The notes beneath the pieces were generated by a model. That model searched no databases and was not told the DNA's origin. It worked only from the letters and a program-made list of their open reading frames with translations. DNA of 64,000 nt from Heptranchias perlo. Lineage: Eukaryota. Positions 13,442 to 58,425 of this stretch are shown here, in pieces. The position numbers and the translations under genes are program-made. The stretch's first letter is position 1; the number at the start of each line of letters is the position of its first letter. The stretch is from contig NC_090336.1 of NCBI RefSeq assembly GCF_035084215.1, positions 29,078,001 to 29,142,000 of the forward strand, written 5' to 3'.

Positions 13442-13617
13442 GGCCCACGGCCTCTTTCCCCCCCTCCTCCTCCTCCACTGTGGCCCCAGGTTTTCTCCCC
13501 GCTGTGATCAGGAAGCCGCACCAACAACAACCGCCTCCCCTCCGTCCTCGTTTCACTTTCGCCGCCAGCGGGCAGGAGGAGGCGGTGCGTGCGTGCGTGC
13601 GCGCACCCATTGATTCC

Positions 13618-32831: not shown

Positions 32832-33133
32832 TCAACTTAATTTCAGCCTGAAATATCTGGGAACTGGGTCCATCTCAGTGGTAATCTCAACTTGGAGCAG
32901 ACAATTGTCATCTTCTTGCCTTGGTATGTAAGTTAGTGCAGTGGTGAAACCTTTACCAGTTTCAAATGGTGTGTTTGCAATAAAGCTCTTATCTTCAAAA
33001 GGGTAGACGTCTCTGTACCAGGTGATGTGAGACTCCGCTATGGTGAATCCTTTAACGGTGCAGGAAACAATTACGGGTTGGCCAGCTTTAGGACTTTCTG
33101 TTTGGCAAGTTATCTTTGACACTGTCTGAAAAT
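32832..33133 (-). CDS. Gene A last coding exon: post-TM C1-like Ig domain 7 ending in TGA
   Basis: ttccaacag|AT (phase 1). DFQTVSKITC..VSCTVKGF..ITW..LLQVEI..LKLS*. A possible donor ACA|GTAAGT lies at 32808, 24 nt past the stop. Confidence 0.82.
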
Positions 33134-33391
33134 CTGTTGGAATAAAATTTGAAATGTAAAACCCTTAATAATGTGACAAAAATAAAGATTTTATTTTACA
33201 AAGTAAACACAAGAAAAGTTGGTAGTTCCAGCAGTACAGCTCGGCACTCCCAGACTAGGGGCTTTTTATTTTTAATCCCAACTACTTCTGACATTTGAAC
33301 TCAGCCATCAATTGGCATTTCCTGCCTAAAAACATGGAATCAGATGGTGTACATCATGGCCATGGAATATTCTATGAGAGTGACGTGGCTG

Positions 33392-35281
33392 TCATAGAAT
33401 CATAGAAAATTTACGGCACAGAAGGAGGCCATTCGGCCCATCGTGTCCGCGCCGGCTGAGAAACGAGCCACCCAGCATAATCCCACTTTCCCGCATTTGG
33501 TCCGTAGCCCTGCAGGTCATGGCTCTTCAGGTGCACATCCAGGTTTTTTTTTAAATGAGTTGAGGGTTTCTGCCTTTACCACCCTCTCAGGCAGTGAGTT
33601 CCAGACCCCCACCACCCACTGGGTGAAAAAAGTTTTCTTCATTTCCGCTCTAATCCTTCTACCAATCACTTTAAATCCATGCCCCCTGGTTATTGACCCC
33701 TCCGCTAAGGGAAATAGGTCCTTCTTATCCACTCTATCTAGGCCCCTCATAATTTTGTACACCTCAATTAAATCACCCTCTGTTCCAAGGAAAATAACCC
33801 CAGCCTATCCAATCGGTCATCATAGCTAAAATTCTCCAGTCCTGGCAACAGCCTCGTAAATCTCCTCTGCACCCTCTCTAGTGCAATTACATCCTTCCTG
33901 TAATGTGGTGAACAGAACTGTACAAAGTACTCAAGCTGTGGCCTAACTAGTGTTTTATACAGTTCCAGCATAACATCCCTACTTTTATATTCTATGCCTC
34001 GGCTAATAAAGGAAAGCATTCCATATGCCTTTTTAACCACCTTATCTACCTGTCCTACTACCTTCAGGGAGTGCATGTCCACAGATCCAAGGTCTCTCAC
34101 TTCCTCTACACCTCTCAGTATCCTCTCATTTATGGTGTATTCCCTTGCCTTGTTTGCTCTCCCCAAATGCATTACCTCAACTTCTCCGGATTAAACCCCA
34201 TTTGCCACTTTTCTGTCCATCTGACCAGTCCATTGATATCTTCCTGCAGTCTACAGCTTTCCTCCTCACCATCAACCACACAGCCTATCTTTGTGTCATC
34301 CGCAAATTTTTTAATCATGCCCCCTACGTTTATGTCCAAATCGTTAATGTACACCCCAAAAAGCAAAGGACCTAGTACCGAGCCCTGCGGCACCCCACAG
34401 GAAATCGCCTTCCAGTCGCAAAAACACCCGTCGACCATTACCCTTTGCTTCCTGCCACTGAGCCAATTTTGGATCCAATTTGCCACATTCCCTTGGATCC
34501 CATGGGCCTTTACTTTTTTGACCAATCTGCCATGTGGGACCTTGTCAAAAGCTTTGCTAAAATCTACGTAGACTACATGAATTGCACTACCCTCATCGAT
34601 CCGCCTCGTCACCTCCTCGAAAAATTCAATCAAGTTAGTCAGACACGACCTCCCCTTAACAAATCCGTGCTGACTGTCCTTGATTAGTCCATGCCTTTCT
34701 AAGTGACAGTTTATCCTGTCCCTCAGAATTGATTCCAATAATTTGCCCACCACCGAGTTAGGCTGACTGGCCAGTAATTACACGGTCTATCCTTCGCTCC
34801 CTTTTTAAACAACGGTACAACGTCAGCAGTCCTCCAATCCTCCGGCACCACGTCTGTATCCAGTGAAGTTTGGAAAATGATTGTTAAAGCCTCCGCTATT
34901 TCCTCCCTGGCTTCTTTTAACAGTCTGGGATACATTTCATCCGGCCCTGGTGATTTATCCACTTTCAAAGATGCTAATCCCCTTAATACTTCCTCTCTCA
35001 CTATGTTTATCCCATCCAATATTTCACACTCCTCCTCCTTAACTTCAATCCCTGCATCATCCCCCTCCTTTGTGAAGACAGATGCAAAGTATTCAATTAA
35101 GAACCATACCCACATCTTCCACCTCCACACATAGTTTACCTTTTGGGTCTCTTATAGGCCCTACTCTTTCCTTAGTTATCCACTTGCTCTTAATGTATTT
35201 ATAAAACATTGTTGGGTTTTCTTTGATTTTACCTGCTAATATTTTTTCATGCCCTCTCTTTGCTTTCCTAATTTCCTTTTA
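33392..35281 (-). mobile_element. CR1 LINE, 5'-truncated
   Basis: [34 protein letters not shown]; tcatagaatcataga tail. Confidence 0.93.
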
Positions 35282-36299
35282 TGGTCAAATAGCTGCCAGG
35301 GTGTGACCTGTGAGTTGTGGGTGTAAAGCTTGCAACAGCAGTAATGTGTGAGGGTGAGATGAAGCATCTGATTGGAAGAGTTAAGTACTGATTTAAAGAG
35401 TTTGTTGGTAGGTGGGTGATGGGGGGGTGTAGTGCTGAGCAACTTTTATTCAATATTTTGAAGGAACTCAACAATTTGTAAACATAAGGATGGGACCTAC
35501 ATGTGTGTTTTATGTGAGCGATTTCTGATCTCCGCTCAGACCCGCATCTTATATTTCGAAAATATAAAAGTCCTGCAAACTTTGAGCAGCCATGTTGTTG
35601 CTCGTTAAAAATTTCAGACTTCCCATCATCACCATGCTTCACTGTATTGCAGCATAGATTCACTTCACCATTGGCTTTTACCACTTCCTGCAGCCAAGGT
35701 GCACCTTCCCTTTAAGAGGTGCAGGCTGCCTTTAAGTGGTGCTAGCCACACGCGATATCTGGGCCCACTGCTGGTGAGCAGCCACTCAACAGCGCAGCTA
35801 GACCTGGCTGCACCCACCACCAATCATGTAAATCACCAGGCAGCATGAATGTTATGTGTTGCCTGCATCTCAACAACCGGGCACGGGTTAATCGCGCACT
35901 GCGATCACCACGCCCGTTTTTGGGGGTTAACTAATTTAACCCCCAGTATGTTTTGGTGGTGTTGGCGTTGGAGGGGGGAATGTGGCCAAGACACTGAGAA
36001 AATAGCTTTCTTTCCTGAATAATGCTATGGGATCTCTTACATCTGATGGGATCTAGTTTAACATCTTATCTGAAAGACAGCATCTCGGACAATGCAGCAC
36101 TCCCTCAGTACTACATTGAAGTGTCAGCCTGGAATATGTGTTCAAGTTCTAACACACAATCTTCAGACTATGAAGCGAGTGTACTACCACTGATCCAAAC
36201 CGACACTTGAAGCAGTGTAGTACCTTATATACTGCATGCCTTGCAGCTGTCAGCATAGCCATTATTGTCTGTATTCTGATCCGTGGGGTTTACTGCACA

Positions 36300-38200
36300 T
36301 CTTAAGAGCAAAAGGTGATTCTCACTTTTTGCATGCTTTCTTTAAGAAGACAAGCCTTATAAATCAGGAGAAATCAGCAACAGTTGGCAAGCCCCCAAAC
36401 CTGAAACGTACCACTTCAATGAGGAGGAATCCATGCAGATCCTGAGGGAAGCAACTTGGGTGATAAAGACAGCAAGGTAGAAGGGCATTTGCCAACAGAG
36501 TGTTTGTCACAGCATTCTATTCTTCCTATTGCATCTTGCATTAATCCTCAGAAGCATATCGTGAGATCCTTATCACTCCTTGCACTGAAATTGATGTGCG
36601 CTCCATTCCTGAGATTCTATTCAAAGCTGTCTTTCTCTTTTCCTTTTCTAGGGGTTTCTGGAGAAGGTGAGCCAGGCTCCAGTGCATCCAGCCCAGCCAG
36701 CACTTCAAAGCATGAACCAACACTCACTCTCTCCCTCCCAAGCACCAGCACAGTGCCATCCATTAGAGTCTGAGTGTGAAGGGAATGCACTGGGTGATGC
36801 ACATGTCACGTGAGCAGGAGGAGCCAGCGTGGAATGTGAGGCGGAAGTCATGACTGACTGAACAGTCAGGATATAATAACCCTTGGCTCAAAAGTTTGGG
36901 GATCCTGATCTTGCAGGGCATTAAAGGTATGTGAGGCAGAGAAGACAGTGTCAGATACTGTGCAGCAGATGGTGGGTAAACTGGAGGAGTCCACTCTGTG
37001 CACTGCAGTCCATCTTGGAACATGTGGTGAGGGGACCATATGACAGAGGCCACGAGAGCAGTCTGCAATTCTTTCATGGTTGCTAAGACTGCTGTCAGAG
37101 GTCTGGGGTGTCAGATTGGGGACAGTTGTCTCACGGATCTTTATTAATCTCACTATTACTGATAAATCTCCTTTCCTGCAGATCAGTGACCATGCAAAGC
37201 CACTGCCCAATGCTGGTAGCATGGCAGGAATGCATTCAGATGATGGTCTTTCTGGGCAGCAGCACATGCGTGCCATCCTGCCAGCCCCTCAGATGCCCGC
37301 ACATGAAAGGAGGCAGGGCCAAATTTCTCAATCAGCAGCAGAAGAGGTGCAGCCTACAGCAGGTCCATCTCAGAACTCTTCTGCCTTGAGGAAAGGGCCA
37401 CTGCATGCCCCGAGGCTCATGCTGACATTGCATCCAGCCACCTCACATCATCCTGCCACTCAGATGGCACCTAGGAAAAGCATTAGGTACATGCACACAC
37501 ACTTTAGAGGTTTTGATTAAAACTATGGTTGCATTAAAGTTGTGTGTCATCTATGGCAATGTTTGAAAATGGATTTGATGAGATAGCGTGAATGAAAACT
37601 CTGAGTTGATGCACACAGGAAAGATTGTGGGGGAAATAATCTGCTCGAGAGTGCAATGACCAGATGCGGTAGTCAAGAGAAGGCCTCATGTATCAGTGTG
37701 GCACAAATATGCTCTGCAGCTAGGAAAAGGTTGTGCTCCATATTATCTACAGGCCTCTGCTGCTGCTCCTTGTCTTCTTCGGTCAAATGCAGATAAGGGT
37801 CATATCTTCCTGTATCCTCAGGTGTGGGATACTGATGAGTAGATGTCATGGGTCTCCAGTGCAGCCTCACCAACTTGGTTTCCCTACTATCCTCTTCTTC
37901 CAAGAAGCAAAGGTAGTGGGGAATCCCCAATTGGAAACCTACGTTGTGTCTTGTCTGAAGTGGGGGGTCCACATCAAAGGGCAGAGAGTAATGCATTAGG
38001 AACAGCAAAAAAAAGTGGAGAAAAAAGGATTTTGCAAAGCTTTAATTATATCTGTGTTTGGCTCTTTAAATGTATTTTTGTCTTTTCTCCAGCATCTAGC
38101 AACCCTGGACAGCCATTGTATACAGGCATGGTTACTGCTAAGTACAAATAAGGCAGTACTGATGCAAAATAGGATGCATGATGTTATCATATGATTACTG
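36300..38200. mobile_element. Degenerate Harbinger-like internal remnant (partly duplicated at 40131-41300)
   Basis: Low-complexity Pro/Ala/Gln-rich frames similar in character to 21550-22420, converging on a minus-strand frame ending ..AAEHICATLIHEAFS. The family assignment is inferred. Confidence 0.4.
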
Positions 38201-38214
38201 CCTAATTTTAATAA

Positions 38215-39615
38215 TTGTAAACAATTTTACAACACCAAGTTATAGTCCAGCAATTTTATTTTAAATTCACAAGCTTTCGGAGGCTTCCCCCTTCGTCAGG
38301 TGAACGATGTGAAATGAGATCCTCGAAATTAAATCGCATTTATAATTCACAGAACAATGCTTGGTGAGTACAGACAGTTTTTTCAACTGCCCGTTGCCAA
38401 GGCAATCAGTGTGCAGACAGACAGGTGTTACCTGCCAGGTCTCACAGAATATACAAATCACCAAAAAAAAAACAACAAACAAAAAAAAACAGAAATGGAG
38501 AGGTAGAAACATAGAAAAGACAGCAACTGACCCGTTATATTAAAAACAGATAACATTTGTTCGCTGGTGGGGTAACGTGTAGCGTGACATGAACCCAAGA
38601 TCCCGGTTGAGGCCGTCCTCATGGGTGCGGAATTTGGCTATCAATTTCTGCTCGACGATTTTGCGTTGTCGTGTGTCTCGAAGGCCGCCTTGGAGAACGC
38701 TTACCCGAAGGTCGGTGGATGAATGTCCATGACTGCTGAAGTGTTCCCCGACTGGGAGGGAACCCTCCTGTTTGGCGATTGTTGCGCGGTGTCCGTTCAT
38801 CCGTTGTCGCAGCGTCTGCATGGTCTCGCCAATGTACCATGCTCTGGGGCATCCTTTCCTGCAATGTATGAGGTAGACAACGTTGGCCGAGTCACAGGAG
38901 TATGAACCATGCACCTGGTGGGTGGTGTCCTCTCGTGTGATGGTGGTATCTGTGTCAATGATCTGGCATGTCTTGCAGAGGTTACCGTGGCAGGGTTGTG
39001 TGGTGTCGTGGACGCTGTTCTCTTGAAAGCTAGGTAATTTGCTGCGAACGATGGTCTGTTTGAGGTTGGGTGGCTGTTTAAAGGCGAGTAGTGGAGGTGT
39101 GGGGATGGCCATAGCGAGGTGTTTGTCCTCATTGATGACATGTTGAAGGCTGCGGAGAACATGGCGTAGTTTCTCCGCTCCGGGGAAGTACTGGACGACA
39201 AAGGGTACTCTGTTGGTTGCGTCCCGTGTTAGTCTCCTGAGGAGGTCTATGCGATTTTTTGCTGTGGCCCGTCGGAACTGTCGATCGATGAGTCGAGCGT
39301 CATATCCCGTTCTTACTAGGGCGTCTTTCAGCGTCTGTAGGTGTCCATCGCGTTCCTCCTCGTCTGAGCAGACCCTGTGTATTCGCAGGGCCTGTCCATA
39401 GGGGATGGCCTCTTTGACGTGGTTAGGGTGGAAGCTGGAAAAGTGGAGCATCGTGAGGTTGTCCGTGGGCTTACGGTAGAGTGAGGTGCTGAGGTGCCCG
39501 TCTTTGATGGAGATTCGTGTGTCCAAGAAAGAAACTGATTCTGAGGAGTAGTCCATGGTGAGCTTGATGGTGGGATGGCTTACGGTAGAGTGAGGTGCTG
39601 AGGTGCCCGTCTTTG
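38215..39615 (-). mobile_element. 5'-truncated Penelope-like retroelement (RT C-terminus plus GIY-YIG endonuclease)
   Basis: Open frame to the stop at 38540: FLDTRI..LYRKPTD..IPYGQALR and NVVYLIHC..WYIGETMQTLRQRMNGHR (GIY-YIG). ATAA flanks both ends, and the empty site is seen at about 41305. Confidence 0.93.
38266..38304 (-). ncRNA. Minimal type I hammerhead ribozyme motif in a Penelope pLTR
   Basis: UUCAC-CUGACGA-A-GGGGG AAG CCUCC-GAAA-GCUU-GUGAA: intact core, stems I and II, palindromic AAGCUU helix III. Confidence 0.72.
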
Positions 39616-41891
39616 ATAAGATCACCCATTTAGGGTGGGTGCTGCTGCCAACAGCCAGAAAATGATGGCAGAGAATTAGGCAAGCACTGAAGTGGGCTGG
39701 CAGCTGGCACACAGCATCTCCACACCTGCCTACCTAAACAGGAATATCTGGGCTATTCTGTATAATGATCTGAAATGCCACACTGACACCATTGTGGATC
39801 AAAACCAAACATGCACAAAACAGGAACTTCTAAAAAATTAGCAGTTTACCTTCATCATTTTGTATGTTGCAATATGAACGATCATCTTCATTTTCACCTG
39901 AACAGAGAAACAAGTTAGTTAAATTCGGTATCACATTAGTCAAATTAAATAAGTACTTCCAATGTTACAGTATTGAGTAACTCACCTAATAGTATTTAAA
40001 ATAACTGAGGTCACCCAAAATTAACTATTTTCAGCATTAACGAAAGAAAACCTTGTTTATTCAATATAAAACTTCAATGTGAAATAAACATTCAAATGAA
40101 GACTTAATTTTGTTGAATTAAAAACAATCAATATGACAGAGGCCACGAGAGCAGTCTGCAATTCTTTCATGGTTGCTAAGACTGCTGTCAGAGGTCTGGG
40201 GTGTCAGATTGGGGACGGTTGTCTCACGGATCTTTATTAATCTCACTATTACTGATAAATCTCCTTTCCTGCAGATCAGTGACCATGCAAAGCCACTGCC
40301 CAATGCTGGTAGCATGGCAGGAATGCATTCAGATGATGGTCTTTCTGGGCAGCAGCACATGCGTGCCCTCCTGCCAGCCCCTCAGATGCCCGCACATGAA
40401 AGGAGGCAGGGCCAAATTTCTCAGACAGCAGCAGAAGAGGTGCAGCCTACAGCAGGTCCATCTCAGAACTCTTCTGCCTTGAGGAAAGGGCCACTGCATG
40501 CCCCGAGGCTCATGCTGACATTGCATCCAGCCACCTCACATCATCCTGCCACTCAGATGGCACCTAGGAAAAGCATTAGGTACATGCACACACACTTTAG
40601 AGGTTTTGATTAAAACTATGGTTGCATTAAAGTTGTGTGTCATCTATGGCAATGTTTGAAAATGGATTTGATGAGATAGCGTGAATGAAAACTCTGAGTT
40701 GATGCACACAGGAAAGATTGTGGGGGAAATAATCTGCTCGAGAGTGCAATGACCAGATGCGGTAGTCAAGAGAAGGCCTCATGTATCAGTGTGGCACAAA
40801 TATGCTCTGCAGCTAGGAAAAGGTTGTGCTCCATATTATCTACAGGCCTCTGCTGCTGCTCCTTGTCTTCTTCGGTCAAATGCAGATAAGGGTCATATCT
40901 TCCTGTATCCTCAGGTGTGGGATACTGATGAGTAGATGTCATGGGTCTCCAGTGCAGCCTCACCAACTTGGTTTCCCTACTATCCTCTTCTTCCAAGAAG
41001 CAAAGGTAGTGGGGAATCCCCAATTGGAAACCTACGTTGTGTCTTGTCTGAAGGGGGGGGGTCCACATCAAAGGGCAGAGAGTAATGCATTAGGAACAGC
41101 AAAAAAAAGTGGAGAAAAAAGGATTTTGCAAAGCTTTAATTATATCTGTGTTTGGCTCTTTAAATGTATTTTTGTCTTTTCTCCAGCATCTAGCAACCCT
41201 GGACAGCCATTGTATACAGGCATGGTTACTGCTAAGTACAAATAAGGCAGTACTGATGCAAAATGGGATGCATGATATTATCATATGATTACTGCCTAAT
41301 TTTAATAAGATCACCCATTTAGGGTTCGTGCTGCTGCCAACAGCCAGAAAATGATGGCAGAGAATTAGGCAAGCACTGAAGTGGGCTGGCAGCTGGCACA
41401 CAGCATCTCCACACCTGCCTACCTAAACAGGAATATCTGGGCTATTCTGTATAATGATCTGAAATGCCACACTGACACCATTGTGGATCAAAACCAAACA
41501 TGCGCAAAACAGGAACTTCTAAAAATGAGCAGTTTACCTTCATCATTTTGTATGTTGCAATATGAACTATCTTCTTCATTTTCACCTGAACAGAGAAACA
41601 AGTTAGTTAAATTCGGTATCACATTAGTCGAATTAAATAAGTACTTCCAATGTTACAGTATTGAGTAACTAACCTAATAGTATTTAAAATAACTGAGGTC
41701 ACCCAAAATTAACTATTTTCAGCATTAACAAAAGAAAACCTTGTTTATTCAATGTAAAACTTCAATGTGAAATAAACATTCAAATGAAGACTTAATTTTA
41801 TTGAATTAAAAACAATCAATGCTGCAGTTATTACAATTTTAATATCGGAAATGTTTTGCTCTGAATCTGACTCCAATAAAACAACATTCAC

Positions 41892-42206
41892 CTTTAATGA
41901 GTAATTTGAAATCTTTCTCTTGAACTTCCTTTGTTTCTATGTGAAGCACCTCACATTTGATGGAACAATTATTATCTTCTTCAGCTGCAATAAATTTTAT
42001 GCTCGAAAGTGAAGCAAAGAGGCCATTGTCAGCAATCACAGCAGTGCTGTTAATCACTTTATCCAAATAAATTCCCCCGTTTTTAAACCACTTTACTTGG
42101 ATTTTATCAGGAACATAGCTTGTCAATGAGATACTGAGTGTTGTAAGCTGATTTACTTTAGGCAGTTCTGGATCAGCTTTAATAACGGACAAGGCAGGAG
42201 ACAAAG
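41892..42206 (-). CDS. Gene A post-TM C1-like Ig domain 6 (B-strand Cys lost)
   Basis: ttctttcag|CT ... AAA G|GTGAAT; 315 nt, phase 1-1. LSISLTSYVP..VKW..IKCEVLH. Confidence 0.88.
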
Positions 42207-43126
42207 CTGAAAGAACAAATAAAAAGTACTTGAATGTTTAGCCATTGAAACAAACTGATTAATTTTTAATGCGAACAAAATAAAAAAATATAGGGTTCTT
42301 GACTAGTTTGTAATATACACAAATGAAGTATGGGAATATATAGATCTCATGAACTTGTTCTTCAAAACTACTGTCATCAGAATTATTGGAATATTCTGTA
42401 GATATACAGTTCACATATTTACATAAAAGATTCTATTGAGAACAGCGCTGATCTTAAAGTGAAGATGGTGGTAGGATATTTTGGTGCGCAACTGCCTGGC
42501 AACATGCAGTGACTGACAGCTTTACCCATGGGTGTCAAGGGACTCCTGAGCAGTAAAGGTCACAGGACTAATGCTTCAGACATAAGGTAGTGACTCACAA
42601 AAGGAAAAAGGACAAAATAAAAACTCAATCAAAATCATCACAATTTTAGTTATTTGATCCAAATCCTGCTAGAAGTATCTATACTAAAAGTTTAATTTTT
42701 TTTTTAAAAAGTTGAAAAAAAAGGAACAATTCCTGGAAATTCACTCCTCTGACATCTTCAGGTAAGAAAAAAAAGTTCAGAACTTTTGTGATTTAGCTCC
42801 TATAAATTTAATTACTTTAAAATATGTATTTATTGGCAATTATATTCTTACTGTGAATCTAAACCACCTTAAATTGTATATACGTCCTTTTAGCAACTTC
42901 AACTGAAGTTCTACTGTACGATTTATCTAATTCTAATTTGCTCGCAGTCATTTATTCTGAAATGACTCATAAATGTGACCCCCACCCTATGTCCTGCATC
43001 GAGCAGAGTTATATCAGATTATTTCTGTTGTGACCTAGTAAAGTACAGCAATATAATCCCAAACATTTATATATAAAGTGGAAATTTTCAAACCTGGGGA
43101 GGGAGAAGGATCAGGGTGAAACATAC

Positions 43127-43438
43127 CTGGAAGTGTCAAAAATGCCTGTTTTTCAATTGGAGTCTTTAGATTAGCATGCTCCACACGGAAGGAAAAATCT
43201 CGTCCAAAATCTAGTGCAGTTGGTTTTACTTTCAAGCAGGAAGACAACCGACAACATCCACTTTCCTCCCGCAGAGGTCCTTTAATTGTGATCCCTTCAA
43301 AGATCGTTTTTCCTTTTTGTAGCCAAATTGTATTGATAGGATGTGGGGAAAAGTTACTGATATTGCAGATGAGAGCAAGATCCATGCCATATCTAACGTC
43401 TGGTGGGTCAAATTTGATGTCTTCAACAAATGGAATTC
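43127..43438 (-). CDS. Gene A post-TM C1-like Ig domain 5 (F-strand Cys lost)
   Basis: taaacag|GA ... CCA G|GTATGT; 312 nt, phase 1-1. GIPFVEDIKFDPP..LICNISNFSP..IW..FSFRVEH. Confidence 0.88.
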
Positions 43439-43897
43439 CTGTTTAAATTGCAAAGAAGCACAATACTGAATAACCAAAAATGTTTAAGGATCAAAAAGGG
43501 AGGTTAAAAAGATCTATCTTTTCTCCCCCAAATGATAGATATTTAAGATGACAAGTGTCATCAAATCTACCATTGTGCAGCTTAGGCTTTGTTTCAAAGA
43601 ACGTGATGACATTTTTAGAACTTTTTACCTTACAAAACATTTATGCTGCTGACTTGATAACCACAGCTATGTTGGGATACCACCAATTTAGAGCCAGTGG
43701 AACCACTGAGAGGAACTCTAAAGTCACAGGCAAACAAGGAACGTAAGCGAGATGGCATTATTGCTGAAGGCATTGTGGATCACTAAAAGAGGCAGTAGAA
43801 GCCTGCGCCTAAAATGGCAGAGCTATCACCATTTTCAACATAAACACACAGCCAGCTCCTTTTGGAGGCAGCCATGTTTTTGGCCACTAGCAGACAC

Positions 43898-44956: not shown

Positions 44957-45277
44957 CTTTTATTTTCAAAAAATGACTGGATGAGACAGGCTTGTTTGAA
45001 GTTTCAGAATGAAGGATTTGCATTTTGAACTCTTTCCCATGGTCCATAATAGTTGGAATAAATGTCCTTTCGGACAGTCGAGAGTACAAACCAGTCTCTG
45101 TATCCTTTGCAACTTCTTCTGTTTTAACTCCATCTGGAGTTTTATCAAATGCTTTGAACCAGAATATTTGATTTTCTTCTGGAAGGAAGCCATATGCTTT
45201 GCAGGAAAGTGTTACAGGTTTTCCCACCTCTGGGTAAAGTGGATCCACTATAATTTCTGTTACCTTTGGCACGGACA
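44957..45277 (-). CDS. Gene A post-TM C1-like Ig domain 4 (F-strand Cys lost)
   Basis: gtacag|TG ... AAA G|GTAAAT; 321 nt, phase 1-1. LSCKAYGFLP..IFW..FKMQILH. Confidence 0.88.
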
Positions 45278-46670: not shown

Positions 46671-46979
46671 CCAGTTGATGGAGTACCCAGTCAGCTTCCA
46701 CTGGCTCGGTTAGGCTATCATGTTCTACTTGGCATGTGTACTTCATGTTAACATTGGCTCTCATAGGTATAATCTTCACACTACTTGTCAAATAATAGAG
46801 TGCATCATTTCCCAGAGTAGGCTCACACGGGGCATCTGATTCTTCTGTCATTTTCTCACCATTTTTGAGCCATGTAACTGTGATTTCACGGGGGTAAAAA
46901 GAATGTATTCGACAGCTTAAGGTCATCGGCTCTTCTGCAATAGCTTTTTCTGATGTTATTGGGTCCAGCTTTGGAGTGG
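46671..46979 (-). CDS. Gene A post-TM C1 Ig domain 3
   Basis: ttttttcag|CC ... CTG G|GTAAGT; 309 nt, phase 1-1. LSCRIHSFYPREITVTW..YTCQVEHDSL, a full C1 signature. Confidence 0.92.
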
Positions 46980-47424: not shown

Positions 47425-47793
47425 CTTGAATGTTCAGCGTGCTTTCTCTCTCTTGGTCACTGCCTGTACACACATGCTGTACCTTACAGATGAACTTTGT
47501 GTCCTGATCTTGCTCAATATCTGGCACAATAACTAGTACACTGGTGATGCTGTATGTTTTGTCTTCATACCCCATCTCACTTATGTAATGGTTATACTTC
47601 TCTTTGCCACTAGGAAAGCTTGTTTTGTTGTGCTGATCTAGCCGAACAATTTCTTTCAAATAATTCGTTCCGATTTGCTGCCATGTGATACTTAATGGTT
47701 TTGGTTTAAATCCACTGATTGGACAAGTCAAGGCCACAGGCTCATTATGAATGATGTGAGGTGGCACGACAATTTTTGACATCTTTGGTGGCA
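47425..47793 (-). CDS. Gene A post-TM C1-like Ig domain 2
   Basis: cccaaag|TG ... CAA G|GTATGT; 369 nt, phase 1-1. LTCPISGFKP..ITW..FICKVQH. Confidence 0.9.
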
Positions 47794-48055
47794 CTTTGGG
47801 AAAGAAAAACAAAACAAAGAAATCACCTATTTAAACTGAAGGAATTTTCATGAGTCAGTAAGAGCAAGAAAATATTATTTTACTGTCTGAATTTTCTATG
47901 ATTTAAGAGTCTACAGATGGCAGAACTGCATTACCACTATTAATCACATGAATGTCACTTCATATGTACCAAATAAAACAAGTTAACAAAAGAAATGCAG
48001 AATGGAATCACATAGCATAAATGTTAATGTTTAAAAGCAAATGTTCATGATTTAC

Positions 48056-48490
48056 CTCCTTCAACACCCAGTGTTACACTTTTCCTAACACGAAGAGTTT
48101 TATGTTGAACTTCAATAGTTAATATAGCCCCATCATCTTTGTCTACATCAGGATACATTTTAATATTGCACATTACATTGAAAGTCCCATCACTGTTAGC
48201 GTCACATTCCGGCTCGAAAGAAATAAAGGATGCATCGCGTTCATAACCATTCATAAGAAGCTGTACTTCAGCTCGTTTTCTTTCCTTCTCTGGTTTTCCT
48301 TTGTTCTTTCGCATCTGGTCCAGACTACACCAGATAAAAATTCGCTTTTCACTTTGATCCTCCTTCCTCTTTAGGAATAAAACAATTTCAATCTCCCGAG
48401 GTCTAAATCCAGTAACTTGGCAACTGATGACGGCTTCCTCACAGTGGCGAAGGATGGGAGGTTTGCTGAGCTCACTAATTTTTGGAGAAA
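48056..48490 (-). CDS. Gene A post-TM C1-like Ig domain 1 (charged insertion; F-strand Cys lost)
   Basis: ttgcttag|TT ... GGA G|GTAAAT; 435 nt, phase 1-1. ISCQVTGFRP..NSDGTFNV..LTIEVQH. Confidence 0.88.
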
Positions 48491-48803
48491 CTAAGCAAAA
48501 CAAAAATATAATTAAAACTTGACAATCTAAATGTTTTCATTTGTTTACTCTTTTATTTCCTTGCTATGACTACAGGCAGAATGTATATACAAGACATAAT
48601 ATTGTGTTTATATATACATATTCTCTAAAACTTTGTGGAAGCACAATCACAAGGACTTCTGTGGTTCAAGGAGAAGATCCACCATCACCACTTAATTTGG
48701 AGAAAATATACAATAAGCAGCCGAAGAATTACAAGAATAACATCCACACAAATACACACATACTCATTACACAATAAAAGGGTTTCACCAGTCAACACAT
48801 TAC

Positions 48804-48917
48804 CTTTTTTAAATTTTATGCAAGTATAAAATCCAGCACCAAACAATAGTCCACATAGCAGCGCCGTAACAACTATACTTGCAACAATTCCTCCTACTGC
48901 TGAAGATTTTTCAGGCT
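48804..48917 (-). CDS. NCR3LG1-like: Gene A exon: transmembrane segment
   Basis: tttcag|AG ... AAA G|GTAATG; 114 nt, phase 1-1. EPEKSSAVGGIVASIVVTALLCGLLFGAGFYTCIKFKK is a hydrophobic helix followed by a basic stop-transfer. Confidence 0.9.
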
Positions 48918-51141: not shown

Positions 51142-51381
51142 TTTGGCTGACCTACTGAGGTCATTGAAGCGCTTCTTGCACTGTATGCAGGTGCGGGAGA
51201 CGTTGCTGCTGCTGGTGGCCTGCTCTGCCACCTAGAGCCAGGCCTTCTTGGTGTCAGAGGCAGGCCACTTCCACCTGTCCGCTGGGTAGATGACATCCCT
51301 CCTCCTGCTCACCCCATCCAGTAGGACCTGGAGTGAGGCATCGGTAAATCTGGGAGCAGCCTTTCCCCTGGTCTGCTCCAT
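51142..51381 (-). pseudogene. Harbinger Myb/SANT-like DNA-binding protein exon with an in-frame stop
   Basis: MEQTRGKAAPRFTDASLQVLLDGV..KKAWL*VAEQ..RTCIQCKKRFNDL|GTGAGT; TIR-like atatcagggcc near 51630. Confidence 0.75.
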
Positions 51382-51974
51382 TTTGTACTTTTAGTTCTTT
51401 GATGCAGGAGCAGCATTGGAGGACTGCCCCTTTAAGTAGGGCTCCTCCAGCTGACAGCCCGTGATGCGGGTGCTCAGTCCGCCCGCTGCGCAGGTTGACG
51501 ACGGGAAACCCGGAAACCATGGTAAGTGGCTGCGATCGCGTGGGGAACGGACGGATTTTACTGGGCGGGTTACCCAAGTGCCCAGTCGCGCCCACCTGCT
51601 GCCATCCCGCCTCCCTGGTAATATCAGGGCCATTATGTCCCTTATCTATCCCCTTTCGAGTGGTACATCAGGCTTTGAAAAAGTTCATTTTTAGAGTGAG
51701 TGGCTGCTCAACTGTTCAACATAATTGCTCACTGGCAGATGAGCAGCACTTTGCTCAAAGCAGTATTTTTTTTAAATTTAAATGCTGGCCTACAGGGAGC
51801 TTTGGATTGCCATCTTCTTCCCCATGAGTGCCACCTTCGGATCTGGATTTCCAGCGCAAGTTAATCCATATAACCAATGGGTAAAAAGAGAAGGTTTAAT
51901 GTAAATTGAAAAAATAGAAAAAAAGGATAATCTGCAAATGGTGGAAATCCAAAATGAAAAAAACAGGATTCCAT

Positions 51975-53090
51975 GGGGTCCATATTAGCCCACCCACGAT
52001 GGGCAGGCTAAAAATCATAAATTGGGGAAGGCCTCCCTAACCCGCCGCATATGCGCCTGCCGCCATTTTTACAGCAGTGGCGTGCGAGCGTCCCGTCTTA
52101 GAAAGGTGGGACACTTCATTATAATATTTAAATCAGGCTCCCACCTGAATGCTGATCTCCGGCCTATCCCGCTATCTGCCAGTCCCCCCTAGCTCCAACC
52201 CCTGATCTTTCCCTTCCTCCCTCGCCATTTCCGGGCTCTGGTCCCAACTGTCGACCAAGCTCCGATCTTGCTCTCCCCTCCTGATTGCCGGGCTCTGACC
52301 ACCCCCACCCCCGCCCCAATCCCAATTACCGGCCTTTCCCGGCTGCAGCCTCCCGTCGCTGGATTTCCCGCTTGGCAACCAGCCAACCTATCAATCTGGC
52401 CGGCTGCCAGGCGGGAAACACAAGAAGAAAATGATAATGAGGTCCTGCCGATAAATTCGCAGGACCTCTGCATCTTAAGGATTTCCAAGCTTTCCCCCGG
52501 CTACCACGCTCCGTTCCCAGAAATATCGGGACCTATATGTCTGTATTATCTCATTGATGAGCTTTTATCTATTTGCCAGTTTGAAGGTCATTTAACACAT
52601 TGACCCTGTTGGGAACAGTCCCCGGCAATTAGGAAAGATCGTGGGGTTAAAGGCTCGGGATTTGAGGGGGGGTGGGGGGAGGGGGGGTTGTCAGCCGATT
52701 GCGGCAATGAGGAGAGACCTCGATTGGCAGAAGGTTTGCTTGAAGGACCGGGGGAGCACTCCTGCTCCTCCTGGCTCGCAAGCAGTGCTATAAAAAGCAC
52801 TTACCTGCTTGATCTGGCTGCTCCCGTCTCCATTTAGCTGCCTGGTTTCCCGAGCCCTCTGAAACTCGGCTGGAAACTGTTAAATTTAAATCAGGCTCAC
52901 AACTGCACTGTGGGAGCCTGATTTAAATATTATAATGAAATGTCCCGCTTCTCCAAGACAGGACACTCGCACGACACTCGCCATTGTAAAAATGGCAGCA
53001 GGGCGTATGTAGCAGGTTGGGGTCACGTTCTGCAATTTCAAATTTTTGACAATAACTTTCTCTTCACCTATATTGTTGTCTCCCATTCTG
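51975..53090. mobile_element. Cluster of GC-rich MITEs related to 10692-11307
   Basis: Shared motifs aatgaggtcctgccg, aatatcgggacc and gagcactcctgctcc. Confidence 0.55.
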
Positions 53091-53312
53091 AAATTTAGAA
53101 ATCTTATGCTTGGATAACTTGATTAATCATTATGGCATACAATGTCTTTTCATTGTGGAATAATAAAGGATGAATTCTTGACTTAAATCAGGTGCAAACC
53201 TCAGTAGAAATTCAATGTTAGACAATGGATACAAGTCATTATAAACTTTTGTAAGATTTAACAAAAGCGCACTGAAAAAATATTCCCATCTTATTCAAAG
53301 AAGAGAACTTAC

Positions 53313-53633
53313 CTTTCACTGTGAGTTTAGCTTCCAGTGAACGACCATCAGGAAGTGATCGGTGCATCACGGTACACTTGTACTTATTACCATCATCATC
53401 CATTGTTGGTTCAATTCTCACTCTACTGGAAACATCAAAGGTTCCGTCACTGTTGGAAATTTGGGCACCAGTGCAGATATCTGTTGTTATTTTCACAGTT
53501 TTCTCCTTTGATATCTTTTCCCAGTTGAGATCATACTGCTGAGGATAAAATCCTCTAACGTCACATCTCACAGACCCCTCTGAGCCATTCAGAATGGTAA
53601 TGTCTTGTGTGGACAAATGCACCACTGGTTGAG
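53313..53633 (-). CDS. NCR3LG1-like: Gene A exon: extracellular Ig C1-set domain
   Basis: aacacag|CT ... AAA G|GTAAGT; 321 nt, phase 1-1. CDVRGFYP..W..CTG..NSDGTFDVSS..YKCTVMHRSL with both canonical Cys. Confidence 0.93.
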
Positions 53634-56030
53634 CTGTGTTAAAGATAAATGTAAGAATAGGTCAGACAGCCTGAAGGCATATTACCACAAATATCTAAAG
53701 CCAGGTCTAAATTATTGTTATGCAAACATATGCTAAACACATCACTTTCCCTCCAACAGCTATTTCTCGTGTATAATAATCCACTCTGTTTCTTCAAAGA
53801 TGTGCACAATAATATCTGGAGTGAATTAAGTAATTATTCCAATACCTCAAATTCAGATTCAAGCATTCCAAATTCCTCAATCACCAACACGCATTTTTAT
53901 ATCACGTTTAATGTACAAAAATGTTTCTAGGTGCTTCACAAATGTTGGGTAAGGGCGGGGGGGGGGGGATGGGGAATAGACAAGGTGACTAATGGCATGG
54001 TGGAATAGATATATTCTGCGAAGTTGTGTGAAAGCAGAGATAAAGCTCTGGTAGCAGCAATGGAATGGAGAGAACAGGGAATACACAGGAAGCCAGAGTT
54101 GGAGGAACAAAAGACTTGGGGTGGGGCATAAGGGTGGAGATATCACGGAGATCAGTTGGGTCAAAGTCGTAAAATGGTGTTATAGATGAGAACCAGCATA
54201 ATGAAATCAAAGTGGCAGCCAGTTCGGGTCAGCAAGAACTAGGGAGGTAGAATGCGGATAGTGGAGTTTTAAACAACGTGGAGTTTGTGGAGAGCGGAGC
54301 TTAGGAGCTGAGCGATGAGGTTGATCATAGAATCTTACAGCACAGCAGGAGGCCGTTTGGCCCGTCGTGCTGGTGTTGGAGAAATCAAACCTGAAGATGA
54401 CAACGGTATGGATAAGGGATTTTGCTGCAGATGGGGTAAGGTAGGAATGGAGGCAGGCAATGTTGCTGGCGTGGAAGTAAGTGGTCTTAGTGGTGGTTAG
54501 GACATGCAGTTTTGAAGCTGAGTTCTGGGTCAAGCAGGCCACTGAGATTGCACACAGCGCAACCTGAGCATGCATTGGGGAGGAGAGATAGATGGATGTC
54601 AGAACTGGAAACTGAACTAATAAAACTTAATGAGAAGAGGACACCATGCATGACTAGGGAGAGAGGGAGTAAAAGCATAATCGAAGGAATAGGTTTTTAA
54701 AAGAAGCTTTTTGAAGGAAGTGAGAGAAGTGACGAGGCAGAGTGGTTTAAGGAGAGAGATCCAGAGGGGAAAAGGCATGGTGACTGAAAGGGTAACCACC
54801 TAAAATAAGGTGGGGGAATGAAAAGCACACAGTAAATCAGTCAGAGGGGCAGAGATTGCATGGTGGGACATATGACTGGAGGAAATCACACAGGTAAAGA
54901 ACAGCAATGTTGTGGAAAGATTTGAAAATGAGGACATTATTGTCCTGTGGAACAGGGAGTAAATGGCGCTGGGTACAAACACGGGTAATGAGAGCGCAGG
55001 ATCTGTTGTGTGTGAGGACACAGGCTACAGAGTTTTGGAGTCACTGAAATTTGAAGGGTGGAGGAATGGTGACAAATGTGTTTGAGAAGTCAATCCTTGA
55101 CGTGACGAAAATTTCAATGGTAGAGGGGCTTGTTGGGGGCAGCGTTCGGGAGACAGGGAGAGTGTTGGGGGCAGCGTTCGGGAGAGAGAAGAATGTGGAT
55201 CTTAGCAACTGACCACTTGTGGGGTCAAGCTGGAAACCTAAATTTGCAGACCACCTCAAGCAGCTGGAGGGAATTTTGATTCACTGAGGTCTTGATGTCA
55301 GAGAGACAAATCAGAATAGTGACAGACTGAGAGTGAATGATGGAGGGCGAGAGATACAGTTGGGTGTCATCGGCAATATGAAAGCTGATCTCATGTTTGT
55401 GGATGACATCACCAAAGGGTAACATTTAATATTATAAAGCAAGTCAATCAGGGTAGTGGGTAACAATGAGCCATGGTCACAGTTACACAAGATATCATCA
55501 GTGACTTTCATCAGGGAGTCTCAGTACAGTGGACAAATTAGACACTGCATTGGAAGTAGAAGTGGGCACTGCATTGGGTGGTAAAAGCATATTTAAGGAT
55601 CTTGGCAAGGAAAGTGTTGGCTGGAGATCGGTTGATAGTTAGCAAGGAAAGGAGAGATGATGAGGAAGAGGAGGAAGAAGAAGGAGGAGATGAAGAGGGA
55701 GTGGAGGACAACAATGTACTTATATAACCTTTAATGTAGAAAAACCTCCAAAAAAGTTCAGAGAAATGCAAATCATTTTTAAAAATGCCAAGCCAAAATA
55801 GGAGATATTGGGAGTGCTGGTCAAAAGCTTGGTCAAAGAGGTAGGTTTTAAGGAGGGTCTTAAAGGATGAGGAGGAAGTGGAGAGATGGCGGCTGCTTAG
55901 GGAGGAAATGCCAGAACGTAGGGCCTAGGTGGCTGAAGGAATGGTAGGACAGGGGAGTGCAGGATGCAGTCAGTAGAACGGAGTGTACAGGGCAGGGTTA
56001 GTAAGCCTGGAGGAAGTTACAAGAGATATG

Positions 56031-57050
56031 GGCCCCGATATTTATGGGGGGGGGGGCGTTGCTAGGGCGCCTGTCAGCAGCTGGTAAACCTGGAAATACC
56101 AGTAAGGAGGAGGTCCTGCCGAATTTAAAGGCGGGACCTCATTAGAATTTTTTTACTCTGTTTCCCGCCCGGCAGCTGGCCAGATTGAGATGCTGGCTGT
56201 GGTCAGGCGTGAAAGCCTGCTGTAGAAGGCAGCAGCGATGGAGAGGAGGGAGGTAGGGATTGCGAGGCGCTTCACAGGAGCATTAGCAAACAAAATGTGA
56301 CACCGAGCCACATAAGGAGATATTAGGTCAGCTCGGATAAAGAGGTAGGTTTTAGGGAGCGTCTTAAAGGAGGAGAGAGAATTAGAGAGGTAGAGAGGTT
56401 GAGGGAGGGAATTCCAGGGCTTAGAGTCTGGGCAACTGATTCATGGTCGCCAGTGGTGAAGCGATTAAAATCGGGGATGTGCAAGAGGCCAGAACTGGTG
56501 GAGCGCAGAGATCTCGGAGGGGTGTAGGGCTGGAGGAGGTTACAGAGATCGGATCATGGTGGTGGGAGGGGGAAATCAGATTGTTGGGGGGGGGGGGGGG
56601 GGGGAGAGAAGGAAGGAGAAAGAGATTGGATCGCGAGGTGGGTGGGAGATCAGATCGCAGCAAGTTTGTTTGAGGGGCCCGGGGGGGCGGGGAGGAGAAG
56701 CACTATTGCTCCTCCAAACCCCCAAACGTTGCTGGAAAAGCGCTTACCTGCTGGATGCAGCAGCCCAAGCCTCCTATTAGTTGCCAGGTTTCCCGAGCCC
56801 CAGGAAGCCCGTGCTGTAGGCATTGATTCCAAGTCGCTGACAAGATCTGAGGCACGGAGCCTCAATTAAATATTAAAATTACCGATCCACTTCTCCAGAC
56901 CGGGTTACTCGGCCGACCCCAAACCCGCTGGATCTAGAAGCATCCGGGTTCACGATGGATTGGGGTCGGGTTTCCCATTTTTAACAATTCAACCCCCCAC
57001 CCCTGCCACTATTCCACCCGTCTTGGGGGGCGGTTAAAATCCCCCCCCCC
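56031..57050. mobile_element. GC-rich MITE interrupted by an L2 fragment (about 56265-56550)
   Basis: Starts ggccccgatatt, the same TIR as 10692; internal L2 tail sequence. Confidence 0.6.
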
Positions 57051-58083
57051 ACCATGGAAGGGTAAGGCCACAAAGGATTTAAACCATTTAAAATTTATGA
57101 ACTGCAGTTTAGCACTATTTATACACAATATTTTAAAAATATTTATTATATTGAGATTTTCCAAACCCTAGACAAACCTGCCAGGGAATAGACAATATTC
57201 TTATGCCATACAATTGGGTTACAATTGCTGCAGGAATTGGCCTCAAGAGGCCATAGAATTCTACAGGCTATAGAAATAATAGGGCTTAGAGTGATGGTTT
57301 AAAAAAAGTCCTCAGGTTTCCAGTTGTACATCTAACATATTAATATCAAACTTGTGTGCAATTTTTAAATTATGTTTTGTAGTGATACTCTGTTGGGATT
57401 GTGTGTATACTTTGTATTTTCTTCATTGGTTAAATAGCCATCATAGATTTCAATGTTGTGAGTATTCTGATTAGTTGTTTTAGGTTGTTTGTTCATTGGT
57501 ACCTGTGTGAGAGCCTGTTGGTTTTCTGTACCGAGCAGTTGAAATAATAAAAGGTTGTCACAGCACTCTTATTAAAGAAGCATTTGGGGGTAATTTTTTT
57601 TTTGTGCTCATCGCAGTTGGGCATCAGAACATTTTTTCAATTTTGTCATCCAGTGTCAGCAAACACTCATAGGTTGTGCTACCGAGTAAAATTCTTCAAC
57701 TCTGCCCCTCTACACTCTGTCTCACCTTTAACCTTAAAGAAGTACCCTTGCTGCACCATTGTAAGTTTCCTTTTTCCCCACACAGCCTTCCTGCTGGTTT
57801 TGGGTGTGAGATTGCCAATTCTGTGCCAAAATTAAGACTGCTCAAACTCATTTCACACATACTGCTAGCAGACAGAGCGGAATTTCAATCTATCAGCCTG
57901 AGCTGCATTCAAACCCAGGCTTCGTAGATGAAAAGGTAGTTTGCTAACCCAATGCATCATCTATTCTACCTTGAGCATGTTTATTTTACACCTTTATGCT
58001 TAAATGTACTGTACCTTACAGTGTTTCCCCAACCCAACAACTTAACACAAAGATCAACAGATTAAAATTTTGGAGACTCTTAC

Positions 58084-58425
58084 CTGACACCTGCATTTCT
58101 GCACTCTTTTCTGCCTTTTCAGGTGTGACAAATACAGAACAAGTGTATTCTCCTTCTTCATCAAACTGTACTTTTGGAAGATGAAGTGAAGCATCTCCTT
58201 TCTTTAATTTGGCCTCAGACATTTTTGCTCCTGGTCTTTTTGGGAAATGGGCTCCTGCCTGAAATCTATAGACCATTGTCCTCTGATTTTTGGGCCCAGT
58301 ATGCCACTCGACACCAACATTTGTTAGGTCAAAAGTGTTGTAGCCGGTAATCTTACATTCCAGGGAAACATCTTCATTCACTAAGACATGCTTTGGACTG
58401 GTGAATATGTTCACACCCAAGGTTT
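58084..58425 (-). CDS. NCR3LG1-like: Gene A exon: Ig V-set domain, B7-H6/NCR3LG1-like
   Basis: Acceptor gacatttag|AA, donor G|GTAAGA; 342 nt, phase 1-1. VSLEC..GVEW..RPGA..LKKGDASLHLP..EEGEYTCSVFVTP resembles the B7-H6 V domain as recalled (RPGA..LKSGDASLRLP..GEYRCEVVVTP). Confidence 0.92.

Follow-up and report, generated by a model that had tools for sequence, protein, structure and literature searches.

Can C1-set immunoglobulin (Ig) domains, which textbooks place outside the cell or in the lumen as parts of antibodies, T cell receptors, and MHC molecules, make up the cytosolic tail of a membrane protein? A locus in the shark Heptranchias perlo raises this question; in the window (the whole 64-kb stretch of DNA analysed here), a first-pass annotation placed seven such domains behind the transmembrane (TM) segment of a B7-H6-like receptor.

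Gene structure and transcripts

The ten minus-strand exons of the gene (Table 1) had been proposed to form one frame, and splicing them confirmed this: all junctions are AG/GT, all lengths are divisible by three (phase 1), and the product comprises 1045 residues and one terminal stop. The predicted order of V, C1, TM, and seven C1-like domains (D1 to D7), with an intron of 313 nt between the TM exon and D1, was recovered by exon splicing and hydropathy, and the absence of a second TM also held, with only one 19-residue window above 1.3 on the Kyte-Doolittle scale (2.48), followed by KFKK. There is no leader exon candidate inside the 64-kb window, but one was found beyond its edge and completes the earlier model. 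Among NCBI models, P0001 (“uncharacterized,” 1099 aa) includes all ten exons plus one 48-nt exon, P0014 (1115 aa) uses both 48-nt exons, and P0015 is a leaderless isoform. Thus, all ten exons of the original chain stand, whereas its direct passage from D6 to D7 does not, two 48-nt tyrosine-motif exons having been overlooked between them.

Table 1. Exons and motifs of the shark gene (window positions, except for the leader exon)
Feature	Position (strand)	Remarks
Leader exon	G000:C12:29149382-29149272	7.3 kb outside the window; has a hydrophobic core
V-set exon	58084..58425 (-)	B7-H6-like IgV of ectodomain; Pfam V-set 43.9 bits; present in RNA contigs
FG-loop V-T-P-E-K	58115..58129 (-)	Aligned to human B7-H6 V-T-P-L-K
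C1-set exon of ectodomain	53313..53633 (-)	Pfam C1-set 45.8 bits; both canonical cysteines kept
TM exon	48804..48917 (-)	114 nt; KFKK at end; sole strong hydrophobic window
D1	48056..48490 (-)	C1-like with long disordered insert; Pfam C1-set 23.4 bits; F-strand Cys and C-strand Trp lost
Putative acidic dileucine-type motif E-x-x-x-L-M	48252..48269 (-)	In D1 insert
D2	47425..47793 (-)	C1-set; both cysteines kept; Pfam and contigs
D3	46671..46979 (-)	Most canonical C1-set; both cysteines kept; Pfam 64.3 bits
D4	44957..45277 (-)	F-strand Cys replaced by Met; Pfam and contigs
D5	43127..43438 (-)	F-strand Cys replaced by Phe; Pfam and contigs
D6	41892..42206 (-)	B-strand Cys replaced by Ser; Pfam and contigs
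48-nt exon, copy 1	41538..41585 (-)	Phase 1; acidic linker with Y-x-N-I; in NCBI isoform X1 (P0014)
48-nt exon, copy 2	39850..39897 (-)	Phase 1; from a 1.69-kb intronic duplication; used in P0001 and P0014
D7	32832..33133 (-)	Terminal domain, ends in the stop codon; C1-like but divergent; F-strand Cys lost; Pfam C1-set 18 bits

We also compared the gene with assembled contigs, which were taken as spliced transcripts from GT..AG intron skipping alone, no source run being recorded as RNA; the comparison stretch excluded the D6-D7 and leader junctions, and contig depths were unused. The D6/D5, D5/D4, and D4/D3 introns (GT..AG) are skipped in contigs from runs presumed to be RNA. In X1 and X2, which represent one sample, a single contig carries V, C1, and D1, and the unlisted interval separating C1 from D1 measures exactly 114 letters, in agreement with the proposed TM-D1 junction; placement of the TM exon here rests on this length, the TM piece itself being absent from the rows shown. 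The X5 contig continues for 114 nt past C1, D1 and D2 lie on a single contig in X6 (a related species), and D2 to D6 lie on a single contig in X2. Beyond D6, contigs extend 48 nt that match either of the duplicated 48-nt exons, with no direct D6-D7 join.

B7-H6 identity, locus, and spread of the architecture

The B7-H6-like identity originally suggested was corroborated by PDB matches, superposition, the FG-loop, and synteny. Human B7-H6 provides the top 3 of 23 PDB matches to the V domain (E 7e-15, compared with 9e-4 for SIRP-alpha) and ranks 2, 4, and 5 of 876 matches to the ectodomain C1, and the predicted ectodomain superposes on B7-H6 with a TM-score of 0.87 to 0.90 (rmsd 2.4 to 2.6). The cluster sits between a nucleobindin gene, represented by minus-strand exons of the NUCB1_N family upstream (C12:29.521-29.529 Mb; this does not distinguish NUCB1 from NUCB2), and KCNJ11 (C12:28.986 Mb, plus strand; PDB match E 6e-179), which lies on the opposite strand 29 kb past the last paralogue. 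In the human gene order, NCR3LG1 likewise lies between NUCB2 and KCNJ11; its cis proximity is visible in an eQTL table (PMC7071772). Human B7-H6 Thr127, Pro128, and Lys130 contact NKp30 (PMC3135353), and these Thr, Pro, and Lys residues are all kept in the aligned shark FG-loop. As judged from PDB match, fold, NKp30-contact loop, and gene position, the gene is a B7-H6 (NCR3LG1) co-orthologue, one of six in tandem. On balance, the ectodomain would be recognized by shark NKp30 (NCR3), carried by NK or T cells.

PMC2715080 describes the B7-H6 family as having an IgV-plus-IgC1 ectodomain followed by a TM and human B7-H6 as a 454-aa protein with a Gag-like tail containing ITIM, SH2, and SH3 motifs. 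The human and shark proteins share V and C1 on phase-1 exons, a single TM, the fold, the T-P-x-K FG-loop, and the locus, but differ behind the membrane, where the shark has a tail of ~800 aa with seven C1-type domains, and in the six tandem genes of the shark. No Gag-like tail was found in the shark gene, the post-TM exons being Ig only by Pfam and AlphaFold2.

Although the architecture had appeared to be a one-off, it recurs across jawed vertebrates in dozens of unannotated database models. V-C1-TM-(C1)n is present in the five neighbouring paralogues or fragments of them, and not every one of the six paralogues need bind NKp30. Elsewhere it occurs in independently annotated rays, coelacanth, lungfish, newt, frogs, lizards, a turtle, and one teleost. 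Among 106 database models that combine V with at least 3 C-type domains, a TM is present in 99, and in 7 no real TM separates the domains (six are listed as such; the seventh is P0019, whose false TM call remains within the 111-protein set used below). Domain number ranges from 1 to 14 between members, D7 closes the array in sawshark, sawfish, skate, coelacanth, lungfish, newt, and frogs, and conservation relative to the coelacanth is 30 to 53% for post-TM domains and 37 to 42% for the ectodomain. Internal duplication and loss of domains are repeated in rays and frogs, and the paralogue cluster is of the birth-and-death type; a quick tree (126 rows, many open forks) was used for groupings only and not for event order. 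There were no shorter relatives among proteins of 30 to 169 residues and, in a weak test, no birds or mammals among the 16 matches listed. Relatives carry database names such as “uncharacterized,” “SIRP-alpha-like,” “CD276 homolog,” “poliovirus receptor-like,” and “Ig gamma heavy chain-like,” and we found no description of the V-C1-TM-C1-array architecture in the literature, within an incomplete coverage of work on B7-H6 evolution. This architecture probably represents the ancestral state of the protein, which in humans has a tail derived from a retrovirus.

Fold, predicted topology, and candidate sorting motifs of the array

The post-TM exons matched only Ig families in Pfam, and six of the seven domains exceed the curated C1-set cut-off (21 bits), with D7 below it. 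An AlphaFold2 model built on a 69-sequence alignment gave a confident fold for each of the nine domains (mean pLDDT 87.8), with D7 forming an Ig sandwich; a single-sequence model was discarded (pLDDT 32.6). The D1 insert, where pLDDT falls below 50 at residues 361 to 377, and the D6-D7 linker are variable and disordered. PDB matches of D3 comprise SIRP-alpha (the best), IgA, and MHC class I alpha-3/beta-2m, and the ESM Atlas returned generic Ig clusters only. Titin, DSCAM, and CEA, the top Foldseek matches of the whole model, were rejected as kin because they reflect many Ig domains in a row. A complex prediction for two copies of D2-D3, run without use of the alignment, scored 0.01 and carries no weight in either direction.

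Several family-wide statistics bear on the side of the membrane on which the array resides, the homologues being related to each other so that the counts are not independent. The C-terminal side of the TM is the more positive in 96 of 111 homologues, with 8 ties. The canonical B- and F-strand cysteine pair is present in 116/126 ectodomain C1 domains versus 228/514 post-TM domains (after exclusion of 16 domains that have gaps in the alignment), and in the shark protein it is missing in five of seven post-TM domains, being kept in D2 and D3 only; both cysteines are kept in 79/93 D2-type and 115/164 D3-type domains across the family. An extracellular tandem array, P0098, has the pair in 10/10 domains. 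N-glycan sequons occur at 1.7 to 1.8 times expectation outside and at 1.07 after the TM, with a higher density in the ectodomain in 94/111 proteins; the shark protein alone runs counter to this trend, with five sequons after the TM and one before.

The D1 insert also contains a candidate sorting signal. The consensus [DE]xxxL[LI], when located in a disordered cytosolic segment, binds AP adaptor complexes, and the shark motif is an L-M variant at the end of the low-pLDDT loop. Because some ray matches fell in a beta-strand, we redid the count on the D1 insert alone, which was scorable in 58/111 proteins, or 48 representatives after close ray and shark relatives were dropped. The motif [DE]xxxL[LIM] is present at floating positions in 26 of these 48 (shuffle mean, 3.1; maximum, 11; 2000 shuffles) and missing in 22, and the strict form [DE]xxxL[LI] is found in 20/48, compared to 2.5 in shuffles and to 12/269 same-sized stretches of other post-TM domains. 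There is no tyrosine motif conserved across the family; acidic-tyrosine linker stretches occur in 14/111 proteins, and the acidic Y-x-N form occurs in only two, both sharks.

The positive-inside charge, cysteine-pair loss, lack of sequon enrichment, and acidic dileucine in D1 together favour a cytosolic array. The product is therefore very probably a type I membrane protein, a call made on the leader, single TM, and positive-inside flank by hydropathy only, with V-C1 outside and an ~800-residue C1 array in the cytosol that would fold without most of its disulfides. The cytoplasmic placement put forward earlier is thus supported by the leader exon, the TM-D1 join, and the family statistics. The array could instead often be non-cytosolic, if phase-1 skipping of the TM exon yields a secreted V-(C1)8 protein like shark UrIg or if the leaderless P0015 inserts in reverse; P0019, P0033, and P0067 join C1 straight to D1, NCBI lists that leaderless isoform, and D2 and D3 keep their disulfide cysteines in a shark tail with five sequons. 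This is nevertheless improbable given the 114 nt at the TM position in the X1, X2, and X5 contigs, the TM in nearly all database models and in all six paralogues, and the loss of cysteines, neutrality of sequons, and dileucine motif, which point to long cytosolic residence. Two adjacent genes or an internal promoter, giving rise to a B7-H6 with a short tail and to an independent protein with the C1 array in the cytosol, would be in keeping with the lack of any listed contig spanning the whole gene, the break between D1 and D2 in the X1 and X2 contigs, and an in-frame methionine as the fourth residue of D2. We regard this arrangement as extremely unlikely, since V-C1-TM-D1, D1-D2, and D2-D6 are each covered by one contig, the D1/D2 break is explained by low-depth intron-retaining contigs, and numerous species with annotations of their own show the same fused order.

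Known receptors resemble this type I arrangement in part. SIRP proteins (V-C1-C1-TM-ITIM tail) are likewise membrane receptors built from V and C1-set domains, and some relatives are named after them in databases; all SIRP C1 domains are extracellular, followed by a short motif tail, whereas the shark protein has one C1 before the TM and seven after and a V domain far closer to B7-H6. Butyrophilins (BTN3A) also have a B7-like V-C ectodomain that a lymphocyte receptor recognizes and a folded module on the cytosolic side, but theirs is B30.2, and no SPRY/PRY match was found by Pfam in the nine exons scanned. Elasmobranch UrIg2 (PMC12227049) shares a non-rearranging V and many C1 exons with the gene described here, but in UrIg2 (V plus nine C1 plus TM) the TM follows the last C1 and the array is extracellular, while here it follows the first C1; hydropathy identified no C-terminal TM of the UrIg/UrIg2 kind.

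Possible functions of the tail

The protein is likely to be an NKp30 ligand with a tail that governs its trafficking and provides docking sites for partners, and we lean slightly toward a mechanism in which the array combines a trafficking switch with a docking rod. The tail would act on the ligand-bearing cell, where the acidic dileucine in the exposed loop of the membrane-proximal D1 would bind clathrin adaptor (AP) complexes and sustain cycling of the protein away from the surface, into endosomes or lysosomes. D2 to D7, whose positions are conserved, together with the acidic Y-x-N linker in some sharks, may bind regulators that retain the protein or mask the dileucine motif, and stress or infection could then raise surface display and NKp30 killing. 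In humans the whole C1 module is absent, and the Gag-like tail, with short motifs of its own, occupies its position.

With the same topology, the array might instead be mainly a structural or reverse-signalling scaffold, a rod of Ig sandwiches tethering the ligand to actin or to proteins of cell junctions and, upon engagement by NKp30, relaying a signal into the target cell, the dileucine being secondary. Seven stable, positionally conserved domains exceed the needs of a sorting signal, and there are precedents in titin, palladin, and MyBP-C, which bind cytoskeleton through Ig domains located in the cytosol, and in the intracellular Ig of sea cucumber AjNLR-new, which binds actin and fidgetin (PMC13133943), as well as the ITIM, SH2, and SH3 motifs of the human tail (PMC2715080). 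We consider this fairly unlikely: a domain number that varies this widely between members is a poor match to a fixed-length ruler, and the Ig domains of titin, obscurin, APEG-1, and AjNLR-new are I-set or unclassified domains of unrelated proteins, not C1-set. Still less probable is a decoy or sensor, in which MHC alpha-3/Ig-constant-like surfaces or fast-changing loops catch cytosolic pathogen proteins or proteases, and the ectodomain becomes available to NK cells once the array has been bound or cleaved, by analogy with inside-out signalling through the butyrophilin B30.2 tail. The resemblance of D3 to MHC class I alpha-3, beta-2m, Ig constant, and SIRP domains, the domain turnover in rays and frogs, the birth-and-death paralogue cluster, and the variable, disordered D1 insert and D6-D7 linker would suit such a role, but post-TM domains are no more divergent than the ectodomain.

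Beyond the trafficking switch, a broader and rather speculative scenario is that the ancestral jawed-vertebrate B7-H6 had domains of the antibody-constant type both outside and inside the cell, with the cytosolic array as a sensing module for pathogen proteins or stress that unmasked a sorting signal for display to NK cells; the family, extending from sharks to lizards and teleosts, would have been eroded domain by domain until, in the lineage leading to humans, a Gag tail of retroviral origin took the place of the array.

C1-set arrays in the cytosol behind a B7-H6 ectodomain would change the picture of where this fold works and would give the ancestral state for the NKp30 ligand. The finding would also account for database proteins labelled “uncharacterized,” “SIRP-alpha-like,” “CD276 homolog,” and similar. 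The conserved dileucine loop offers a testable answer to how surface display of B7-H6 is controlled, and the presence of members in Xenopus provides an established model in which topology, trafficking, and partners may be studied.

Gene structure and splicing

The ten exons of the first-pass annotation stand at the positions proposed, all with AG/GT ends and in phase 1, and their stop-free chain encodes 1045 residues plus a stop (about 1,046 aa had been estimated). Re-reading the spliced exons gave the same 313-nt intron before D1 and the same single TM, the only strongly hydrophobic segment of the ten-exon product, followed by KFKK. Pfam agreed with the proposed domain order, recovering a V-set domain first, a C1-set domain second and C1-set domains for six of the seven post-TM domains, D7 falling slightly below the cut-off. 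The AlphaFold2 modelling suggested earlier returned Ig sandwiches for all nine domains (mean pLDDT 87.8; input alignment of 69 sequences), with disorder predicted in the leader, the TM region, an insert in D1 (361-377) and the D6-D7 linker.

The leader lies outside the window. The NCBI model P0001 (XP_067849968.1, a Heptranchias perlo entry called "uncharacterized protein") reproduces each of the ten exons exactly, and it adds one 48-nt exon and a leader encoded 7.3 kb past the window end. P0014 uses both 48-nt exons, and P0015 is leaderless. The exons of the ten-exon chain are present, but D6 is not joined directly to D7 in the transcript contigs, which extend 48 nt past D6; the two 48-nt exons sit within a 1.69-kb duplication. 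The D6-D7 intron also contains a 397-aa open frame resembling a Penelope-type retroelement, with a reverse transcriptase end and a GIY-YIG-like motif; duplications of 1.69 kb and 3.09 kb, 97-99% identical, lie on either side of it.

Eight sequencing runs cover part of the window, and the contigs of four were examined. Introns D6/D5, D5/D4 and D4/D3 are spliced out with canonical ends. The proposed TM-to-D1 junction (48804->48490) is supported by a single contig of X1/X2, runs of one sample, that has V, C1 and D1, with a C1-D1 gap of 114 letters equal to the TM exon in length, the TM piece itself being absent from the displayed rows. D2 through D6 lie on one contig in X2 and D1 plus D2 on one in X6, a run about 10% divergent; no contig listed for the four runs spans the whole gene. 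Low-depth contigs of X2 and X5 keep the D1-D2 intron, which would truncate the tail after D1 and resemble frog one-domain forms. The architecture is real, expressed, conserved and unusual, RNA status being on record for none of the eight runs, and we count gene structure, splicing, fold class and family membership as demonstrated.

Features of the window and of related loci
Feature	Coordinates	Strand	Remark
48-nt exon, copy 1	window 41585-41538	minus	matches contig extension past D6
48-nt exon, copy 2	window 39897-39850	minus	near-identical to copy 1
D1-D2 intron kept	window 47766-48085		
397-aa open frame	window 39733-38543	minus	
Piece related to 397-aa frame	window 32502-32230		
LINE-like reverse transcriptase fragments	window 29987-31497, 33771-35278, 59381-60211, 2-964, 18783-19628		introns and intergenic
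GC-rich stretch	window 13170-14211		37-nt tandem repeat
Next paralogue, V, C1, TM exons	window 9503-9138, 5930-5610, 2461-2345	minus	
Next paralogue, six post-TM C1 exons	G000:C12:29076317-29062413		best match, ray protein P0006
Most divergent paralogue, V-C1-TM-D1..D6	G000:C12:29035315-29015690 (L002-L004)		open exons; adjoins KCNJ11
Paralogues with single-domain-type repeat tails	G000:C12:29380837-29362511 (L031-L032) and 29209228-29169497 (L011-L015)		five D4-like in one; three D1-like, one partial, in another
Lone D3-like exon	G000:C12:29411599-29411294 (L035)		stop near start
Unlinked V-C1-TM and C1-like exons	G000:C18:36950985-36999727 (L052-L056)		
V-C1-TM exons	G000:C31:30345496-30350600 (L060-L061)		

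A B7-H6 cluster and its relatives

The best three of 23 PDB matches to the V domain were human B7-H6 (E 7e-15), and superposition of the ectodomain model on B7-H6 gives a TM-score of 0.87-0.90. The FG loop reads V-T-P-E-K, against V-T-P-L-K in human B7-H6, where Thr127, Pro128 and Lys130 are NKp30 contacts (excerpt of PMC3135353). Six V exons, each followed by a C1 and a TM exon, form the cluster on C12, with nucleobindin exons upstream and, 29 kb after the last paralogue, KCNJ11 on the other strand. This is the neighbourhood seen in human, with the order NUCB2-NCR3LG1-KCNJ11; the closeness of the human neighbours is visible in a table excerpted from PMC7071772. On the strength of the V matches, ectodomain fold, FG loop, cluster and neighbourhood, the gene is a B7-H6 co-orthologue, in line with its initial B7-H6-like label.

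Two neighbouring paralogues carry V-C1-TM-D1..D6 exons in open frames (one donor is off by one base and a few acceptors are approximate). Two other neighbours have homo-repeat tails, comparable to those of P0034, P0052, P0005 and P0011, and the remaining one yielded no assignable post-TM exons after its V-C1-TM. The GC-rich stretch, some 4 kb ahead of the V exon of the next paralogue, may contain that gene's promoter and leader exon. The lone D3-like exon precedes the cluster's first V exon and is possibly a remnant of a seventh copy. On C18, an unlinked V-C1-TM has a C1-like exon about 550 nt behind it, with a near-identical C1-TM-C1-like duplicate 37 kb further; the design is not limited to the B7-H6 cluster. 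The C31 locus, which appears tapasin-like, has no post-TM Ig exon within 20 kb.

Searching 1.84 billion representatives yielded 196 matches at 1e-30, and the best 150 of these were taken further. Among the matches listed, 99 of 106 proteins that combine a V with three or more C-type domains place a real TM between Ig domains. The survey of sharks, coelacanth, lungfish and amphibians suggested earlier found the D1-D7 order in sawshark, sawfish, newt and frogs (P0028, annotated by NCBI as NCR3LG1, and P0036), and with one extra domain in coelacanth and lungfish. Lizards, a turtle, Xenopus and a wrasse have a three-domain form, and a further group (a frog, coelacanth, bichir) combines V-C1(-C1)-TM with up to 14 post-TM domains; species names cover 20 of 148 new representatives plus those named by a further search, with birds and mammals inadequately covered. 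The V-C1 ectodomain is duplicated in P0008 (skate) and P0058. The post-TM domains match the ectodomain in conservation and are thus probably under selection.

The human B7-H6 tail is Gag-like (excerpt of PMC2715080), whereas the shark gene has a C1 array in that position; in UrIg2 the C1 array precedes the TM (excerpt of PMC12227049), whereas here it follows. Excerpts of PMC13262535, PMC10751288, PMC11599192, PMC3964593 and PMC6514059 describe no Ig tail, and full-text searches met no description of the architecture (at the level of titles, apart from the cited papers); the one aimed at Ig or C1 domains inside the cell brought up three unrelated papers. It is uncharacterised in the databases consulted; an earlier remark on it, for which Flajnik 2012 or Ohta and Flajnik 2015 are the likeliest places, is possible, though less likely than not.

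Membrane orientation and possible function

The proposal of a cytoplasmic C1 array is favored by four sequence signals from 111 homologues, which are related to one another. In 96 of them the C-terminal side of the TM carries the more positive charge, with 8 ties. Both cysteines of the B-F pair are kept in 116/126 ectodomain C1 domains versus 228/514 post-TM domains (only D2 and D3 in the window's protein), and in 10/10 domains of an extracellular tandem array; intracellular Ig domains depend on a hydrophobic core instead of the disulfide (excerpt of PMC1352370). Sequons are enriched 1.7-1.8-fold outside but not after the TM (1.07), with higher ectodomain density in 94/111 proteins. Finally, [DE]xxxL[LIM] occurs in the D1 insert of 26/48 representatives (six of the acidic-PLL type) versus 3.1 in shuffles, at a position that floats over 20 residues. 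Acidic dileucine motifs are known to work solely in the cytosol, via AP adaptors. Together with the leader and single TM, these signals make a cytosolic array very likely. Against this, D2- and D3-type domains mostly retain both cysteines, the window's protein carries five sequons C-terminal to the TM and a single one N-terminal to it, its D1 motif is the L-M variant, and the close models P0019, P0033 and P0067 are without a TM. An array in secreted or flipped form appears improbable, and two genes rather than one more improbable still.

For function, we lean modestly toward a tail that would set surface display through the dileucine loop of D1 and would dock regulators on D2-D7, below an ectodomain that probably binds NKp30. 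A cytoskeletal or reverse-signalling scaffold, for which AjNLR-new offers a precedent (excerpt of PMC13133943), seems unlikely, and a tail that senses pathogen proteins or serves them as a decoy somewhat less likely again. What is surprising is the probable cytosolic placement of the C1-set array, together with its age; the conserved putative sorting motif provides a new handle.
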